From: a virus
Taxonomy: Duplodnaviria; Heunggongvirae; Uroviricota; Caudoviricetes
Reading direction: 5' to 3' (one strand)
Length of the DNA: 5,014 nt
Virus record (IMG/VR): IMGVR_UViG_2778261447_000019
A program made the position numbers and the translations under genes. Shown here piece by piece: positions 1 through 5,014 of the stretch (positions within the stretch are counted from its first letter, which is position 1; each line of letters opens with the position of its first letter). The notes below the pieces were generated by a model. That model was not told where the DNA came from and searched no databases. It saw only the letters and a list, made by a program, of their open reading frames with translations.

Positions 1-867
1 CTTGCGCGGGTCTTTTCCGGCTGCGTGCTCAAGCCATTTATGAAAGTTTGGCGCGTTATCGCGGATGTTCTCCCCTGGTACTGGCGGCGTGTACTCAATG
101 CCGTTGTGTGTGGTGATCCAGTTATCAGGCGAGTGCGGGGAAAATTCCCCTGTTTTCAGGTCAAGCACGCCATTAGCGAACGGCAGCAAATCACCGGACG
201 GCTCGCCCATTGGTTCGGCAATAACTTTTAACGCTTCAACGGCGTTACTGATTACGCGCTTGCTGAAAGTGGCCCTGTGCTCTGAATAGATCGCCACCAT
301 TTCGCGGCTCAGTTCCATTGTGCTGACCGGACACCATACCCCGCCGCGCCAGACGTGAACGATTTCACTTTCCGGATGCACACAAACGCCATCAAACCGA
401 CCAGCAAGCATCTGTGCGCGCTCACTGTCTGCCATCTGTGAAAGTTGTGCTTTTTTCTGCTCCGGCATGGTAAGCCCTGCGGCAATATTTTCACGCTCAG
501 CATTCAAATAGCGCCGCCAGTTCTCCACCTTCTGACCGTGCATTCCTTCAGAGTAAAAATTCGCATCCTGAATATCTGCCGCCGCCAGCTTCTGACCAAT
601 CTTTTTGGTCTCCACTAAATCCAGTTCTCCGGCCTGGTACAGCCTTACGCGTTTTTTTCCATCCGGAACAATTTTCAGCGCATCAAGTTCAGCAAGCTGA
701 TTTGGCCCAAGCCACACAGGCGGCACATTATCGCCGGATGCGGGACCGTCCTTCTCCTGCCACTGTTGTGCATGCGACCAGGCATCACTACCCGCGAAAA
801 TAATTACCTCTGTGTCTTTGTGTTTTATTCCGCGTGGCTGTTTTTTTACGTTCGGTGCCAGTTTCAT
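1..867 (-). CDS. Partial CDS (N-terminal 289 codons; C-terminus lies beyond window start): P4-family phage/plasmid primase-helicase-like replication protein
   Basis: The minus-strand frame is open from the ATG at 867-865 to position 1, with no TCA/TTA/CTA triplets in plus frame 1; the six-frame track omits it only because it has no stop inside the window. The ATG overlaps the upstream stop (ATGA at 867-864) and is preceded by a G-rich SD (cAGGGGtaaaa). The translation contains FANGVLDLKTGEFSPHSPDNWITTH...YTP followed by NFHKWLEHAAGKDP, which matches from memory the D5_N / P4-family primase C-terminal signature (NGxLDLxTGxxxxHxPxD...T, then FxxFL....GD). Confidence 0.7.
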   Translation of the reverse strand, partial: MKLAPNVKKQPRGIKHKDTEVIIFAGSDAWSHAQQWQEKDGPASGDNVPPVWLGPNQLAELDALKIVPDGKKRVRLYQAGELDLVETKKIGQKLAAADIQDANFYSEGMHGQKVENWRRYLNAERENIAAGLTMPEQKKAQLSQMADSERAQMLAGRFDGVCVHPESEIVHVWRGGVWCPVSTMELSREMVAIYSEHRATFSKRVISNAVEALKVIAEPMGEPSGDLLPFANGVLDLKTGEFSPHSPDNWITTHNGIEYTPPVPGENIRDNAPNFHKWLEHAAGKDPRK

Positions 868-1163
868 TTTTTACCCCTGAATCCGTTAATCATGGTTTTC
901 AGCTTCTGGATGTTTGCCCGTGCCCTGGCGTTGCTGGTGGGCACGTTATGCGGCGCGGTCTGTACCAGAGAAAAATCACGCCGGAACTGATAAACAGGCA
1001 TCACGCAGTCATATTCGTAGCCATCACGGCGGTAAGTGATGCGCCGTTCCTCCACGCCTTTAATCGTTACCGTGCCGCCGTAGTTATCACGGAAAATATC
1101 GCCTGGACGGATTTCAGGACGAGCGGGGCCGCTGGCATTAACGCCAGTATTTTTCTTTTTCAT
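864..1163 (-). CDS. Hypothetical small basic protein (99 aa); possibly a DUF4222-like phage protein
   Basis: Complete ORF whose stop overlaps the primase start (ATGA). A GGAG lies 10 nt upstream of the ATG. The core GDIFRDNYGGTVTIKGVEERRITYRRDGYEYDCVMPVYQFRRDF resembles the small phage-associated DUF4222 pattern; this is recall, not a search result. Confidence 0.6.
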   Translation of the reverse strand: MKKKNTGVNASGPARPEIRPGDIFRDNYGGTVTIKGVEERRITYRRDGYEYDCVMPVYQFRRDFSLVQTAPHNVPTSNARARANIQKLKTMINGFRGKK

Positions 1164-1856: not shown

Positions 1857-2214
1857 GGCGCACCCCCTGAATAACCTGATATCCGCAACTGGTCAGCAAT
1901 TCGATAAATTCCGGCAGTGTGCCGAAACAGCAATCATCACGCAGCCGTTCGCAGGATACCTCGACGCCGTTTTCGTAGTGACTCACCATACATCCGGTAA
2001 AATGCAGATCATCATCGTGATGGCTCGTTGACGGCTTAATCAGTCGCGCACGTTCCGCCAGTTCCAGCAATGCTTGAACGCTTCCGGCAATTGCACCATC
2101 CGGCAGGTGATAATTACGCACTATGCGCCCGTTCTCCACATTGACGAGTAGCTGTCCGGTAAATTTCTCACGAAACTGAACGCGGTTAAGATCGGTAAGT
2201 GACAGGTTAATCAT
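1846..2214 (-). CDS. Hypothetical His/Cys-rich protein (122 aa from the ATG at 2214; the track's 161-aa version starts at a GTG at 2331)
   Basis: The ATG at 2214-2212 is preceded by a strong SD (AGGAGG, 6-nt spacer); the longer GTG-initiated form has no SD and would overlap the upstream gene. The C-terminal half has His65, His66, His71, His79 and Cys75, Cys88, Cys95, Cys96, Cys110 (SHHDDDLHFTGCMVSHYENGVEVSCERLRDDCCFG), suggesting a metal-binding site. Confidence 0.6.
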   Translation of the reverse strand: MINLSLTDLNRVQFREKFTGQLLVNVENGRIVRNYHLPDGAIAGSVQALLELAERARLIKPSTSHHDDDLHFTGCMVSHYENGVEVSCERLRDDCCFGTLPEFIELLTSCGYQVIQGVRHVQ

Positions 2215-2404
2215 GGCACACCTCCTGACGAATACGGGCGGCGAATACAGCGACACAACCGGACGGGCAACGGTTACGCGCTTCGCGTTCCGTCCAGGCG
2301 GTGACGTGGATAATTTGAGATTCTCCGGCACTCAGTGCCAGAAAACGCCACATAAAGGCGGTTTGTGTGTGCGCTAGTCGTGGGGTATGCTGTGTTCCAG
2401 CCAT
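2207..2404 (-). CDS. Hypothetical small protein (66 aa), first gene of the operon
   Basis: Internal ATG of the long 2207..3169 ORF at 2404-2402, preceded by AGGAG with an 8-nt spacer (aacAGGAGtaacgattATG). The long upstream extension is serine/cysteine-rich junk antisense to a better gene. The C-terminus contains CPSGC...CH. Confidence 0.5.
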   Translation of the reverse strand: MAGTQHTPRLAHTQTAFMWRFLALSAGESQIIHVTAWTEREARNRCPSGCVAVFAARIRQEVCHD

Positions 2405-2435
2405 AATCGTTACTCCTGTTAACGGTTTGGTTAGA

Positions 2436-2467
2436 CGCCCCGTTACTGCCGCAAACAGTTCGGGGCG
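2436..2467 (-). promoter_or_regulatory. Leader hairpin in the 5' UTR of the minus-strand operon (7-bp GC stem CGCCCCG/CGGGGCG with an 18-nt loop)
   Basis: Perfect inverted repeat CGCCCCG (2436-2442) and CGGGGCG (2461-2467), 32-63 nt upstream of the first ATG of the operon. No U-tract follows on the minus strand, so it is not a classical terminator. Confidence 0.3.
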
Positions 2468-2493
2468 TTGTCGTTTACATCCTCTTACTGAGG

Positions 2494-2569
2494 TGTGATT
2501 TAAATTAAATTCAACTGAATCACAGATCAAGTATTTTTTGTGATTCTTTTTTGTGTATACTGAATCACA
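2494..2569. promoter_or_regulatory. Divergent promoter/operator region with four alternating TGTGATT / AATCACA half-sites
   Basis: TGTGATT at 2494-2500 and 2539-2545; AATCACA at 2518-2524 and 2563-2569. An 11-bp perfect direct repeat ACTGAATCACA occurs at 2514-2524 and 2559-2569, 45 bp apart. The sites form inverted pairs (GAATCACA-N14-TGTGATTC) in an AT-rich stretch between divergent start codons at 2404 (minus) and 2592 (plus). A TATACT -10-like hexamer lies at 2556-2561. Confidence 0.5.
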
Positions 2570-2591
2570 TCTTTTGTTTAGGAGAATGCAC

Positions 2592-2897
2592 ATGGCAAAA
2601 AACACTATCAACGACAAATCAAAACAGATTTCAATTCGTATCCCACATGATGCTTTTGATGGCATGGAATCCGTAAAACTGGACGGCGAAAGCAACGCCG
2701 GATTCATAGTAACCGCCATGCGTGGTGAGATCGCCCGCCGCCAGGCAGAAGGAAGAGGAGAAAATCCCCTGGTTTCTTCGCTCGATGCACTGGCGCAGGT
2801 GGAAAAAATCGGTGTCAAAGCTGCCGAGGAGATCGGGCAACTCGTCGCCGTTGCGCGTGAAGAACTCCAGCGGCGCAAAGCCAAAGAACAGGAATAG
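2592..2897 (+). CDS. Putative ribbon-helix-helix (CopG/Arc-like) DNA-binding regulator, 101 aa
   Basis: The ATG at 2592 is preceded by GGAGA (2581-2585) with a 6-nt spacer; the track's longer ORF from 2553 lacks an SD. The N-terminus KQISIRIPHDAFDGMESVKLD...NAGFIVTAMRGEIARR has a beta-strand/helix/helix pattern typical of RHH repressors, and the C-terminus is a charged helix. An intrinsic terminator follows directly. Confidence 0.65.
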   Translation: MAKNTINDKSKQISIRIPHDAFDGMESVKLDGESNAGFIVTAMRGEIARRQAEGRGENPLVSSLDALAQVEKIGVKAAEEIGQLVAVAREELQRRKAKEQE

Positions 2898-2928: not shown

Positions 2929-2956
2929 GGCCACCGTGACAGGTGGCCTTTTCTTT
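2929..2956 (+). terminator. Rho-independent terminator of the RHH regulator gene
   Basis: GGCCACC (2929-2935), loop gtgaca, GGTGGCC (2942-2948), followed by TTTTCTTT (2949-2956). Confidence 0.6.
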
Positions 2957-3009: not shown

Positions 3010-3080
3010 GCTCAGATTCATTTTTTGCGCAGCAGGTAAATTGTTCAGAAAGGCGGCTCCTTATCGGGGCCGCTTTTTTT
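3010..3080 (+). ncRNA. Candidate small RNA (~70 nt) bounded by the extended -10 promoter and a strong intrinsic terminator
   Basis: No plausible ORF with an RBS. It contains a 6-bp stem CCTGCT/AGCAGG (3007-3012 and 3031-3036), an AU-rich linker, and the terminator hairpin. It lies between the regulator gene and alpA. Confidence 0.3.
3053..3080 (+). terminator. Rho-independent terminator (8-bp stem with one G-U pair, followed by T7)
   Basis: GCGGCTCC (3053-3060), loop ttatc, GGGGCCGC (3066-3073), then TTTTTTT (3074-3080). Confidence 0.65.
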
Positions 3081-3196: not shown

Positions 3197-3223
3197 TGGC
3201 GGCTGTGTGCCGCCAGTCTTTTT
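3197..3223 (+). terminator. GC hairpin with T5 tract abutting the alpA stop codon (possible convergent or bidirectional terminator)
   Basis: TGGCGGC (3197-3203), loop tgtgt, GCCGCCA (3209-3215), then gtcTTTTT (3216-3223). On the minus strand the hairpin sits immediately after the alpA stop but is not followed by a U-tract. Confidence 0.35.
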
Positions 3224-3410
3224 AGTGAACTGCCTCGCAGCTTTCCTTCCATGCCAGAACTTCGGATAAAGACCAGCCAACGGAACGACCGCCCAGCTTA
3301 CGCCGTGATGGGAATTGTCCGGCCTTTTCCAGGCGGTAGCGGCATGAGCGGCTAAGGCCTGTTAGCTTTTCGCATTCTTTTTCACGTATAAACCGATCAG
3401 TGCTTAACAC
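3222..3410 (-). CDS. alpA: AlpA-family phage transcriptional regulator / excisionase-like protein (62 aa)
   Basis: GTG start at 3410-3408, preceded by aGGGGG with a 5-nt spacer. The sequence KLTGLSRSCRYRLEKAGQFPSRRKLGGRSVGWSLSEVLAWKE matches the AlpA/Vis-type helix-turn-helix signature (TG.SRS..YR....G.FP...KLG.RSVGW...EV..W). It sits immediately downstream of an integrase, as in CP4-57 and P4-like elements. Confidence 0.85.
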   Translation of the reverse strand: MLSTDRFIREKECEKLTGLSRSCRYRLEKAGQFPSRRKLGGRSVGWSLSEVLAWKESCEAVH

Positions 3411-3784: not shown

Positions 3785-5014
3785 TTATTTTCTTCTGGCT
3801 ACTGGTAGCGTGGTTACGTTTTCATGTGCTCCCGCCAGTATCTCCAACCGCTCCACCCACATATCCAGCGCATTGCGTTTCGCATCCAGATAACGGGAAT
3901 GATTATAAACTCGCTGCATCCCTGGCATCTGGTGGCCTGTAAGCTGCTCCACGACGTGAGGATCCACGCCTAAATCGTTCAGCATGGTTGTAAAGGTGCG
4001 CCGGATGTCATGCAGTGACCAGTGAGGGTGTTTAAGCCTCCTGTGCACTAATCTGCCGTACTGCGACACGCTGGTTTCCTGTTTCACTTCCCCCAGCAAT
4101 AAGCCCGTGTGCCTGTTCTGCTCCACCAGCTGCGTGATGAACGGCAGTATCGCTTCCGGTATGGGCCGGAATATGGCTACCTTCGTTTTGCTGTGCTCCT
4201 TCGGAACGGTCCAGAGCATTTCGGTAAAATCCCACTCGCCGATCTCCGATAACCTCAGTTCTACTGTCCGGCATCCGAAAACAATCAGGAGGCGGATTAG
4301 TGCGACGTAGTAAGGGGAAAATATTTTTTTGTCCAGTGCCTGCAATAATTCGCCCAGTTCTCTGGTGCTTAAGACACGTTCGCCTATATCCGGTTTTTTC
4401 CCAACGTCAGCCACACTCATATCATCAAGAACGTTGCTGATTGCATAGCGCCGCTTCCGGCAGAACTTAAGCGCCTGTTTGCATGTCTGTAGCAGGAACC
4501 CGGCGGAAACAGGGGCTTGCTTTGCCACCCGATCAAAACAGGCCAGCCAGTGCCGTAGCTCGCATTTATCCAGCGGCATAGGGCCAATGTGCTGTATTAC
4601 GTGATTATTTAGCCGCTTTTTCAGTGGGTCATAATCCACACGGTTTTCCTTTGCGTACGACTCAAGCCAGTAGGTGAGCGCATCGCCAACCGTTACAGGC
4701 TTTAACGCTTCCTGTACGGTGTAATTCATCTCATGACGTGGATTTTTCCCCTCAGCCAGCCATGCGCGACACTGGGCGGCTTTTTCCCTGGCTGATTTCA
4801 GGCTCAGATCAGGATAATTTCCCAGCTTAATGCGTTCCGGTGATGCCCCCCTTCCCGTTCCGGCCCTGTAAGTGAAATACCAGGTTAAAAGGCCGCTGGT
4901 TGAATGCCTGACGGTCAGGTTTCCACCGTCATTAAGAAAGACTGTTTTTTGGGCGGGTGTGCCGTTGATTTTCCTTAGCTGTGTATCACTCAGTTTGTTA
5001 AGTGCTCTGCGCAT
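3785..5014 (-). CDS. int: Tyrosine recombinase, P4-type phage integrase (409 aa)
   Basis: The N-terminus LSDTQLRK...DGGNLTVRHSTSG...WYFTYR is an arm-binding-like domain typical of P4-family integrases. The C-terminal catalytic box has HDIRRTF (H-x-x-R) and RVYNHSRY (catalytic Tyr). The start codon occupies the last three bases of the window, so the true 5' end and the adjacent att site or tRNA cannot be verified. Confidence 0.9.
   Translation of the reverse strand: MRRALNKLSDTQLRKINGTPAQKTVFLNDGGNLTVRHSTSGLLTWYFTYRAGTGRGASPERIKLGNYPDLSLKSAREKAAQCRAWLAEGKNPRHEMNYTVQEALKPVTVGDALTYWLESYAKENRVDYDPLKKRLNNHVIQHIGPMPLDKCELRHWLACFDRVAKQAPVSAGFLLQTCKQALKFCRKRRYAISNVLDDMSVADVGKKPDIGERVLSTRELGELLQALDKKIFSPYYVALIRLLIVFGCRTVELRLSEIGEWDFTEMLWTVPKEHSKTKVAIFRPIPEAILPFITQLVEQNRHTGLLLGEVKQETSVSQYGRLVHRRLKHPHWSLHDIRRTFTTMLNDLGVDPHVVEQLTGHQMPGMQRVYNHSRYLDAKRNALDMWVERLEILAGAHENVTTLPVARRK

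Follow-up and report, generated by a model that had tools for sequence, protein, structure and literature searches.

Introduction

Phage-inducible chromosomal islands (PICIs) of Gram-negative bacteria and their capsid-forming relatives (cf-PICIs) are widespread phage satellites that move defence and virulence genes between species, and their induction has so far been explained by the activator AlpA only. In the prototype Gram-negative island EcCICFT073, AlpA is both necessary and sufficient as an activator for induction: a reporter at ORF3 (open reading frame 3) depends on alpA, and AlpA alone induces excision and replication (PMC6092414). The global repressor of Gram-negative PICIs was termed 'unclear' in the same work (PMC6092414), and the gene downstream of alpA is variable and of unknown function according to a later preprint. 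In Gram-positive islands the repressor Stl is lifted by the binding of a helper-phage protein (PMC6092414). Here we describe a candidate repressor and its sites in a 5,014-nt stretch of DNA (IMG/VR record IMGVR_UViG_2778261447_000019; hereafter the window, meaning the whole stretch), which belongs to a cf-PICI-type satellite of E. coli. A 101-amino-acid (aa) protein of the YlcI/YnfO family, predicted to have a ribbon-helix-helix (RHH) fold, is encoded divergently from an operon that runs from an Icd-like gene to a primase gene. The spacer between them carries phased 9-bp sites that co-vary with the protein across related islands.

Phased sites in the divergent spacer

An earlier note on this DNA, made from the sequence alone, had described a plus-strand 101-aa gene diverging from the leftward operon across an AT-rich region. 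This layout is confirmed: the gene, which is the sole convincing plus-strand gene of the window, diverges from the minus-strand Icd-like gene across a spacer of 187 bp (2405-2591) with 38.5% GC, falling to 25% in the operator core, against 49% for the window. The 11-bp direct repeat of the same note, ACTGAATCACA, is located at 2514-2524 and 2559-2569, 45 bp apart, and the motif TGTGATT has exactly four copies in the whole 5014-bp window, at 2494 (+), 2518-2524 (-), 2539 (+) and 2563-2569 (-). Shuffled sequences are expected to hold 0.8 copies, and four were reached in one of 200 shuffles. The palindrome TGTGATT-N17-AATCACA occurs twice, at 2494-2524 and 2539-2569, likewise 45 bp apart; none of 200 shuffles contained two copies, even with 2 mismatches allowed.

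When the most repeated 9-mer is searched for de novo, this region resolves into four TGTGATTCA-like sites of 9 bp, at -98, -76, -53 and -31 from the ATG of the regulator gene (Table 1). The alternating elements with 21-24 bp between centres proposed earlier are thus real in their phasing, which amounts to 22, 23 and 22 bp, while their description as half-sites probably does not suit the 9-bp units. Each 9-mer (TG-N5-CA-like) is probably a full site for one RHH dimer. The positions and spacing of the four 9-mers recur in nearly all related loci, and no further copy of the operator is found elsewhere in the whole 16.8-kb element. Seven relatives (L007, L010, L012, L014, L015, L017 and L028) possess a fifth site in the leftward leader, one 22-bp step further left at about -120 from the ATG; it is absent from the equivalent position of the window (~2472-2480).

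Co-variation of sites and regulators

We compared the window with 17 E. coli loci across the identity range, 12 loci of other genera, EcCICFT073 and the induced satellite vB_KppS-Ant; the 30 related loci cover seven genera (E. coli, Enterobacter, Serratia, Erwinia, Xenorhabdus, Photorhabdus and Phytobacter). In all compared loci a YlcI-like gene faces the Icd-like gene over a common spacer scaffold, which consists of a GC-rich hairpin, site, AT-rich stretch, site, GTCAAG, T-tract, site, T-tract, TGTGTATACT-like -10 hexamer, site, Shine-Dalgarno sequence and ATG. Residues at positions 11-15 of the predicted N-terminal strand of the regulator vary and co-vary with the site sequence: every strand variant is paired with its own repeated 9-mer at approximately -98, -76, -53 and -31 from the ATG. 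The strand KQISIRI goes with TGTGATTCA, QSLTARI with TGTAAGnCA, QQLNARF with TGGTATTCA, QLTTVRV with TGTGTTTCA, QMTT(I/L)RV with TGAGATACA or TGATATACA, Q(L/V)KN(I/V)RI with GTGTGTATT, KKLEARV with GTGTCAGCC, AQKKIRF with GTGTACCCCCAC-type sites and, in EcCICFT073, QALKARV with GTGTGGCCCAC; the site of class C is GGTATTCA. The pairing is constant across genera though the sequence between the sites has diverged, and it is also present in EcCICFT073 and vB_KppS-Ant. The latter, an induced and packaged satellite, has an operator class of its own (GTGCACCCCCAC / GTGGGGGTACAC). The sites of EcCICFT073 and L002 are direct repeats and not inverted, with the third site missing or degenerate.

The most telling comparison is that of the window with L006. 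The two are 93-100% identical in 2234-2413 and 2730-2879, and only 27-70% identical in 2474-2729, a stretch that corresponds exactly to the putative operators and regulator codons 1-46. This pair is a natural swap experiment, and cassette swapping is the key evidence for the proposed match between site and protein. Other candidates for the source of specificity behave differently. An identical AlpA (WP_000953271.1) is found in L003 and L010, which belong to two site classes (TGTGATT and TGTTTCA, respectively). Icd-like proteins from different classes share 98% identity, those within class D only 43-45%, and regulators identical at 99 of 101 positions can neighbour Icd-like proteins of 45% identity. 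The C-terminal part of the regulator reaches up to 97% identity between site classes. Since none of them tracks the site class, AlpA, the Icd-like protein and the regulator C-terminus were set aside as specificity determinants.

The regulator protein

By its match to the family model (65.1 bits over residues 9-50, cut-off 30), the 101-aa protein is a member of the YlcI/YnfO family (NCBIfam NF041551, formerly DUF3950), and its database homologues are named YlcI/YnfO likewise. The family is small: a search of 1.84 billion representatives at E <= 0.001 yields 71 clusters, and many of its members, at 55-67 aa, consist of the N-terminal domain only. It has no assigned function: YlcI, YnfO and DUF3950 receive only incidental mentions in the searchable literature, where we found no experiment on the regulator gene, and our literature search returned no paper tying PICIs or satellites to RHH or CopG regulators. 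A tblastn search of the regulator against 50,697 phage records gave no match. A GGAG-type motif stands in related loci at the place matching the Shine-Dalgarno sequence of the window gene.

The AlphaFold model contains helices at residues 19-28 and 35-53 followed by a single long helix at 59-100. Residues 1-54 form the RHH domain of the model (predicted local distance difference test score, pLDDT, of 88 for the domain alone), in which an N-terminal strand and two helices are superposable on solved RHH domains. The sequence carries the corresponding signature, I-S-I-R-I-P ... D-G-E-S-N-A-G-F, with alternating hydrophobic residues in the strand. This agrees with the family pattern of an alternating strand ending in R-[IVF]-P, helix A, a G-E-S/T turn and helix B; in the family alignment E33 is invariant, position 34 is S or T, and R16 and P18 are conserved. 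Comparison shows the modelled protein to be of the RHH fold class. The C-terminal helix (42 residues, pLDDT ~90) does not pack on the RHH domain in the model. It is conserved across site classes and absent from short family members, among them the 59-aa forms of EcCICFT073 (L032 8474-8653) and L002 (8518-8697). In both of these islands the 59-aa regulator gene is followed by a second small plus-strand ORF of 57-63 aa.

Predicted divergent promoters

Two promoters, PL for the leftward operon and PR for the regulator gene, were placed in the spacer with conservation and the scans of related loci as guides; the promoter scan of the window made no call in the intergenic region. At the position homologous to PL, the scan calls TTGACA-17-TAAAGT in L004 (10/12 matches) and TTGACG-17-TAATAT in L022. 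The register of PL is conserved among related loci, and the GTCAAG of the scaffold is the reverse complement of its TTGAC -35 element. A TAnnnT hexamer at the PR -10 position is conserved in all classes. The arrangement displays mirror symmetry about 2531.5, with sites centred 11.5 and 33.5 bp and -10 hexamers 27 bp to each side. Each -10 hexamer lies between two sites, one of which abuts the -35 position while the other covers the edge of the -10 and the start point. Comparison of the loci shows the sites to overlap the predicted promoters, and such a layout over both of them is a repressing geometry.

A proposed switch

Taken together, these observations lend good support to the core of our reading, namely that phased operators cognate to a putative RHH regulator overlie the divergent promoters. 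We consider it probable that the YlcI/YnfO-family protein is an RHH repressor that shuts off the operon from the Icd-like gene to the primase and regulates itself. Dimers would read the 9-bp sites through the N-terminal strand. Neighbouring dimers are probably linked by the long C-terminal helix and would in this way jointly bind sites about 22 bp, or two helical turns, apart. Occupied sites would shut off PL, and with it the Icd-like gene, the small genes, the DUF4222 gene and the primase, and would limit PR, the regulator's own promoter. Repression of both promoters would keep the satellite quiescent.

Several observations weigh against this reading. Regulator and sites are adjacent, and part of their co-variation is therefore linkage. 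In the window PL is weak (7/12 matches) and PR has no recognisable -35 element, and the scan called neither. No Pfam RHH family matches the protein at cut-off; the best, PSK_trans_fac, has E = 0.021 and 16 bits against a required 28. Searches of the PDB by sequence or profile likewise gave no significant RHH match (best profile match 3no7, E = 0.2). DSSP finds no strand in the monomer models, as is expected for RHH proteins, in which the ribbon forms only in the dimer. The RHH-like N-terminus of the earlier note is upheld by the predicted fold and by the RHH sequence pattern, but not by the curated RHH families; as these models miss significance, RHH membership rests on the predicted fold rather than on sequence. 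Members of 59-67 aa have no C-terminal helix, and some of them (L002, EcCICFT073) are accompanied by direct repeats, so the oligomerisation model is not general. Finally, a repressor phenotype goes unmentioned in the cf-PICI papers, according to which induction requires alpA. A role as master repressor of the island, akin to Stl, is plausible, but since AlpA drives induction in published work, this role needs to be reconciled with AlpA-driven induction. The architecture upstream of the operon suggests a way to do so.

Possible read-through frame and predicted terminators

The Icd-like reading frame continues far upstream of its gene. In the window it stays open for 260 codons, and 19 of 28 loci have open stretches of 200-540 codons; most of the loci with a closed Icd frame have another minus-strand frame open in its place. 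When stop codons are totalled for 23 loci, the Icd frame has 23 in the spacer, whereas the other two frames have 123 and 140; in the stretch antisense to the regulator gene the totals are 27 against 83 and 102. In vB_KppS-Ant (LR881103) the annotation lists the long frame as a protein of 324 aa, and a 67-aa YlcI-like RHH ORF (L030 3619-3822, minus strand) lies antisense within it, unannotated. The Prokaryotic Genome Annotation Pipeline (PGAP), the source of the Icd-like annotation in relatives, labels pieces of the long frame 'icd-like, pseudo'. The N-terminal 255 residues of the frame have no family match and a composition that looks non-protein-like, and it may be the act of translating the frame, rather than its product, that matters.

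Three hairpins between the regulator gene and alpA are followed by U-runs on the plus strand only. As terminators they would keep regulator transcripts out of alpA and int, yet let leftward alpA transcripts pass. With plus-strand terminators alone lying between, read-through from alpA is possible, and induction would then not require direct removal of the repressor: minus-strand transcription activated by AlpA would read through from upstream, running antisense over the repressor gene, through the operators and into the operon. Translation of the long frame into the Icd-like gene would protect this transcription. The arrangement suggests that repression could be bypassed by read-through, and not necessarily relieved by an anti-repressor, which would reconcile a repressor with AlpA-driven induction. 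The induction of EcCICFT073 by AlpA alone and the alpA dependence of its ORF3 reporter (PMC6092414) agree with such read-through.

A predicted structured RNA on the plus strand

The stretch from the ribosome-binding site and start codon of the Icd-like gene towards site 1 is predicted to fold into two hairpins, with selection acting on the plus-strand form. Counted over the hairpins, G-U pairs number 39 for the plus strand and none for the minus strand, and compensatory changes are present. The plus strand is the more stable one in 21 of 21 distinct sequences (mean -34.5 vs -23.3 kcal/mol), and the window copy has a folding energy of -32.3 kcal/mol (z = -4.4). A TAnnnT hexamer stands 7 nt before hairpin 1 in almost all loci despite differing Icd-like N-termini. 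These features suggest an RNA of about 80 nt, predicted to act in cis as an antisense to the Icd-like translation start. Alternatively, the structured region could belong to the regulator mRNA as a long 5' leader. With all 39 G-U pairs on the plus strand, we ruled out that hairpin 2434-2469 acts as a minus-strand leader or attenuator. The same hairpin fails the strict U-tract rule of the scan for a terminator, and 'terminator' is a tentative label for it.

Within the regulatory region, the structured RNA included, an Rfam search of the window (E <= 1) matched neither C4 nor isrK nor any other family; an isrD match (22 bits against a cut-off of 37) is merely the terminator at 2929-2948. L013, the only one of 19 related loci with such RNAs, has matches to C4 (77.6 bits) and isrK (66 bits) at 754-939 (-), between the leftward promoter and the Icd-like gene and inside an 'ash family' pseudogene. 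Since L013 has both, the RHH/operator module and an RNA immunity module of the P1/P4 type can coexist.

More tentatively, and with somewhat less than even confidence in the whole, we picture three interlocked layers: an RHH gene embedded in antisense orientation within a translated read-through frame that leads from alpA to the Icd-like gene; AlpA-driven transcription and translation that would at once silence the repressor through convergent transcription, sweep the operators and bypass the block; and the ~80-nt cis-antisense RNA, which would check Icd-like translation. The cassette of operators and RHH gene would then be the heteroimmunity determinant and the long-sought repressor of Gram-negative PICIs and cf-PICIs.

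Alternative explanations

The best-placed alternative, in our opinion an unlikely one, is that the RHH protein is a local regulator, which holds a toxic Icd-like protein off and regulates itself, while AlpA and control at the RNA level (the plus-strand antisense RNA and, in some relatives, RNAs of the C4/isrK type) decide whether the island is on or off. The sufficiency of AlpA for the induction of EcCICFT073 (PMC6092414) would fit this arrangement, as would the presence of the plus-strand structured RNA over the Icd-like start region in all loci, the position of C4 and isrK RNAs in L013, downstream of PL and ahead of the Icd-like gene, and the analogous operon of P4, which is run by RNA immunity alone (PMC10111431). 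However, PL lies upstream of the whole leftward string including the primase, and because no other promoter or terminator was found between PL and the primase gene, repression of PL should silence the replication genes too. Cassette swapping of a heteroimmune type is moreover typical of maintenance repressors.

It is less likely still that the protein activates one of the promoters, either through a site-3 dimer that replaces the missing -35 element of PR or, in the manner of P22 Mnt at Pant/Pmnt, through binding at PL that shifts RNA polymerase to PR. Site 3 stands exactly where the absent PR -35 is expected and is degenerate in several classes, both of which would suit an activator, but site 4 covers the PR -10 edge and start point as the mirror of site 1 at PL, and this favours repression. 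A pairing of the regulator with the Icd-like protein as a type II toxin-antitoxin system, in which the RHH domain would autoregulate and the C-terminal helix neutralise, is very improbable. The genes are divergent and not co-transcribed, the helix is wholly absent in short family members, and the regulator C-terminus shows no co-variation with the Icd-like family (99/101 identity beside 45%), on which ground we rejected the pairing. We give next to no credence to a binding of the repeats by AlpA, the Icd-like protein, host CRP or a helper-phage protein, or to their being replication iterons beside an unrelated ORF: TGTGA/TCACA resembles CRP half-sites and the PHROGs label for Icd-like families is 'transcriptional repressor', but CRP sites (TGTGA-N6-TCACA) are rejected by the N21 spacing and by the unrelated sequences at the same positions in other classes, AlpA and the Icd-like protein by their failure to co-vary with the sites, which only the first ~46 regulator codons track, and the PICI origin is reported downstream of pri (PMC10111431).

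Genomic context

The window was called the regulatory and replication end of a cf-PICI-type satellite (as described in 10.1101/2022.09.08.507074) because in relatives the same gene string continues into capsid genes: in two of them it runs on into genes for a single-stranded DNA-binding protein (SSB), major capsid, head-decoration and connector proteins. It spans the int-alpA-regulatory-primase end of the element, and the order int, alpA, regulator (+), Icd-like ... primase (-) is found in the window and 30 loci. In a megablast search with the window, related DNA was present in 1814 of 5426 complete E. coli genomes, approximately a third, and at as many as six places in one genome. The regulator region was matched in 675 of the 5426. 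The features of the region are collected in Table 1.

Table 1. Features of the regulatory region and its surroundings (window positions, unless a related locus is named).
Feature	Position	Strand	Remarks
Tyrosine integrase gene	3785-5014	minus	
alpA	3222..3410	minus	known PICI activator (PMC6092414); Pfam PF05930 (Phage_AlpA), 65 bits
Third predicted terminator	3197..3222	plus	adjoins alpA stop codon
Second predicted terminator	3053..3080	plus	-21.6 kcal/mol, then U7
Predicted intrinsic terminator	2929..2954	plus only	after regulator gene
YlcI/YnfO-family regulator gene	2592..2897	plus	101 aa, stop codon included
Shine-Dalgarno AGGAGA of regulator gene	2580..2585	plus	read from sequence, 6 nt before ATG
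PR, predicted	2533..2561	plus	regulator gene; -10 TATACT (2556-2561), poor T-rich -35 (~2533-2538)
PL, predicted	2502..2530	minus	Icd-like-to-primase operon; -35 TTGATC (2530-2525), 17-nt spacer, -10 TAATTT (2507-2502)
Site 4, TGAATCACA	2561..2569		overlaps last base of PR -10 and predicted PR start point
Site 3, TGTGATTCT	2539..2547		abuts position expected for PR -35
Site 2, TGAATCACA (reverse of TGTGATTCA)	2516..2524		abuts PL -35
Site 1, TGTGATTTA	2494..2502		overlaps last base of PL -10 and predicted PL start point
Structured RNA, predicted	2395..2480	plus	two hairpins; antisense to Icd-like ribosome-binding site and start codon
Hairpin 2	2434-2469	plus	then U-rich tail
Hairpin 1	2399-2432	plus	covers complement of Icd-like AUG; anti-Shine-Dalgarno CUCC in loop
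-10-like TATGCT	2385-2390	plus	before hairpin 1
Open frame of 320 codons	2207..3169	minus	in frame with Icd-like gene; through operators, antisense through whole regulator gene
Icd-like gene	2207..2404	minus	65 aa, first of leftward operon; NCBIfam NF033153, 64 bits vs cut-off 25
Three small ORFs		minus	in leftward string
DUF4222 gene	864-1163	minus	
D5_N primase gene, start		minus	
BRO-N or AntA/AntB genes of relatives	L007 2025-2603, L012 1958-2536, L013 2313-, L016 2175-	minus	

Relatives show a highly mosaic make-up between the regulator gene and alpA. Several of them, though not the window, carry genes of the BRO-N or AntA/AntB antirepressor families there. Downstream of the regulator gene of L020 lies a match to the small RNA isrN (1907-2049, plus strand; 152.7 bits); the contig of this locus is labelled Martelella alba but is otherwise enterobacterial in look, and the label may reflect contamination or mislabelling.

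Implications for known islands

EcCICFT073 has the same module between alpA and the Icd-like gene, with the 59-aa YlcI/YnfO gene and the 57-aa ORF on the opposite strand. The module genes bear late-added locus tags (C_RS30120, C_RS30125 and C_RS30800), which suggests that they were missing from the original annotation. Prototype experimental islands thus carry the regulator gene, which their original annotation apparently did not list. For this gene our analysis provides a predicted fold, a candidate DNA target, a promoter architecture and a proposed specificity code, and with them the first function proposed for the YlcI/YnfO (DUF3950) family. The quiescent state of these islands, the cross-immunity of co-resident islands and the tipping of the switch by helper phages become directly testable, and matched protein/operator cassettes could serve as orthogonal repressor parts.

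Comparison with known systems

Known RHH regulators provide partial parallels. P22 Mnt and Arc act at divergent promoters, and NikR places two RHH dimers two helical turns apart. The P22 immI region, with Mnt/Arc, the divergent Pant and Pmnt promoters and the sar antisense RNA, is a close system, but shares no detectable sequence similarity with the present locus. P22 uses one 21-bp operator, whereas three to five 9-bp sites two helical turns apart are found here; P22 is also a phage, while the gene described here belongs to a satellite and lies antisense inside a long open frame. NikR binds as an RHH tetramer to a single operator, GTATGA-N16-TCATAC, in contrast to an array of sites, and its C-terminal domain is a metal-binding ACT-like fold and not a single long helix. 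The Omega repressor of pSM19035 recognises contiguous WATCACW heptads with 7-bp spacing, compared with 22-23 bp here, and the match to its sequence holds for this one site class only and is probably coincidental.

The order of elements resembles that of the P4 left operon (PLL/vis, the nested eta-kil genes, PLE and CI RNA): the alpA homologue comes first, followed by a long ORF, the internal promoter, a short and toxic product of the C-terminal end, and the primase. P4 Kil is 65 aa long, as is the Icd-like protein. The nesting of eta and kil finds its equivalent in a long ORF that starts upstream of the internal promoter and ends as a short protein of toxic type. In P4, the long ORF is coupled to the alpA homologue, contains a constitutive internal promoter and ends as the short Kil; its translation prevents termination, and the frame is translatable from the upstream promoter only (PMC10111431). 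A tblastn search of the Icd-like protein against the 50,697 phage records gave one match, to the satellite vB_KppS-Ant, and detected no homology to P4 Kil, although the presence of P4 in the collection was not confirmed. The immunity factor of P4 is the CI RNA and no protein repressor, whereas a putative RHH protein is found here; no C4/CI or isrK RNA of the P4 type was matched in the window, and the antisense-embedded RHH gene has no described P4 counterpart.

In position and proposed role, the regulator resembles Stl of the Staphylococcus aureus pathogenicity islands (SaPIs) and Rpr of Gram-positive PICIs: it is a proposed island silencer, encoded in the regulatory region after int and divergent from the replication/packaging operon. 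The fold of Stl is not RHH, unlike that predicted here, and, unlike Stl, the regulator could be bypassed by AlpA-driven read-through.

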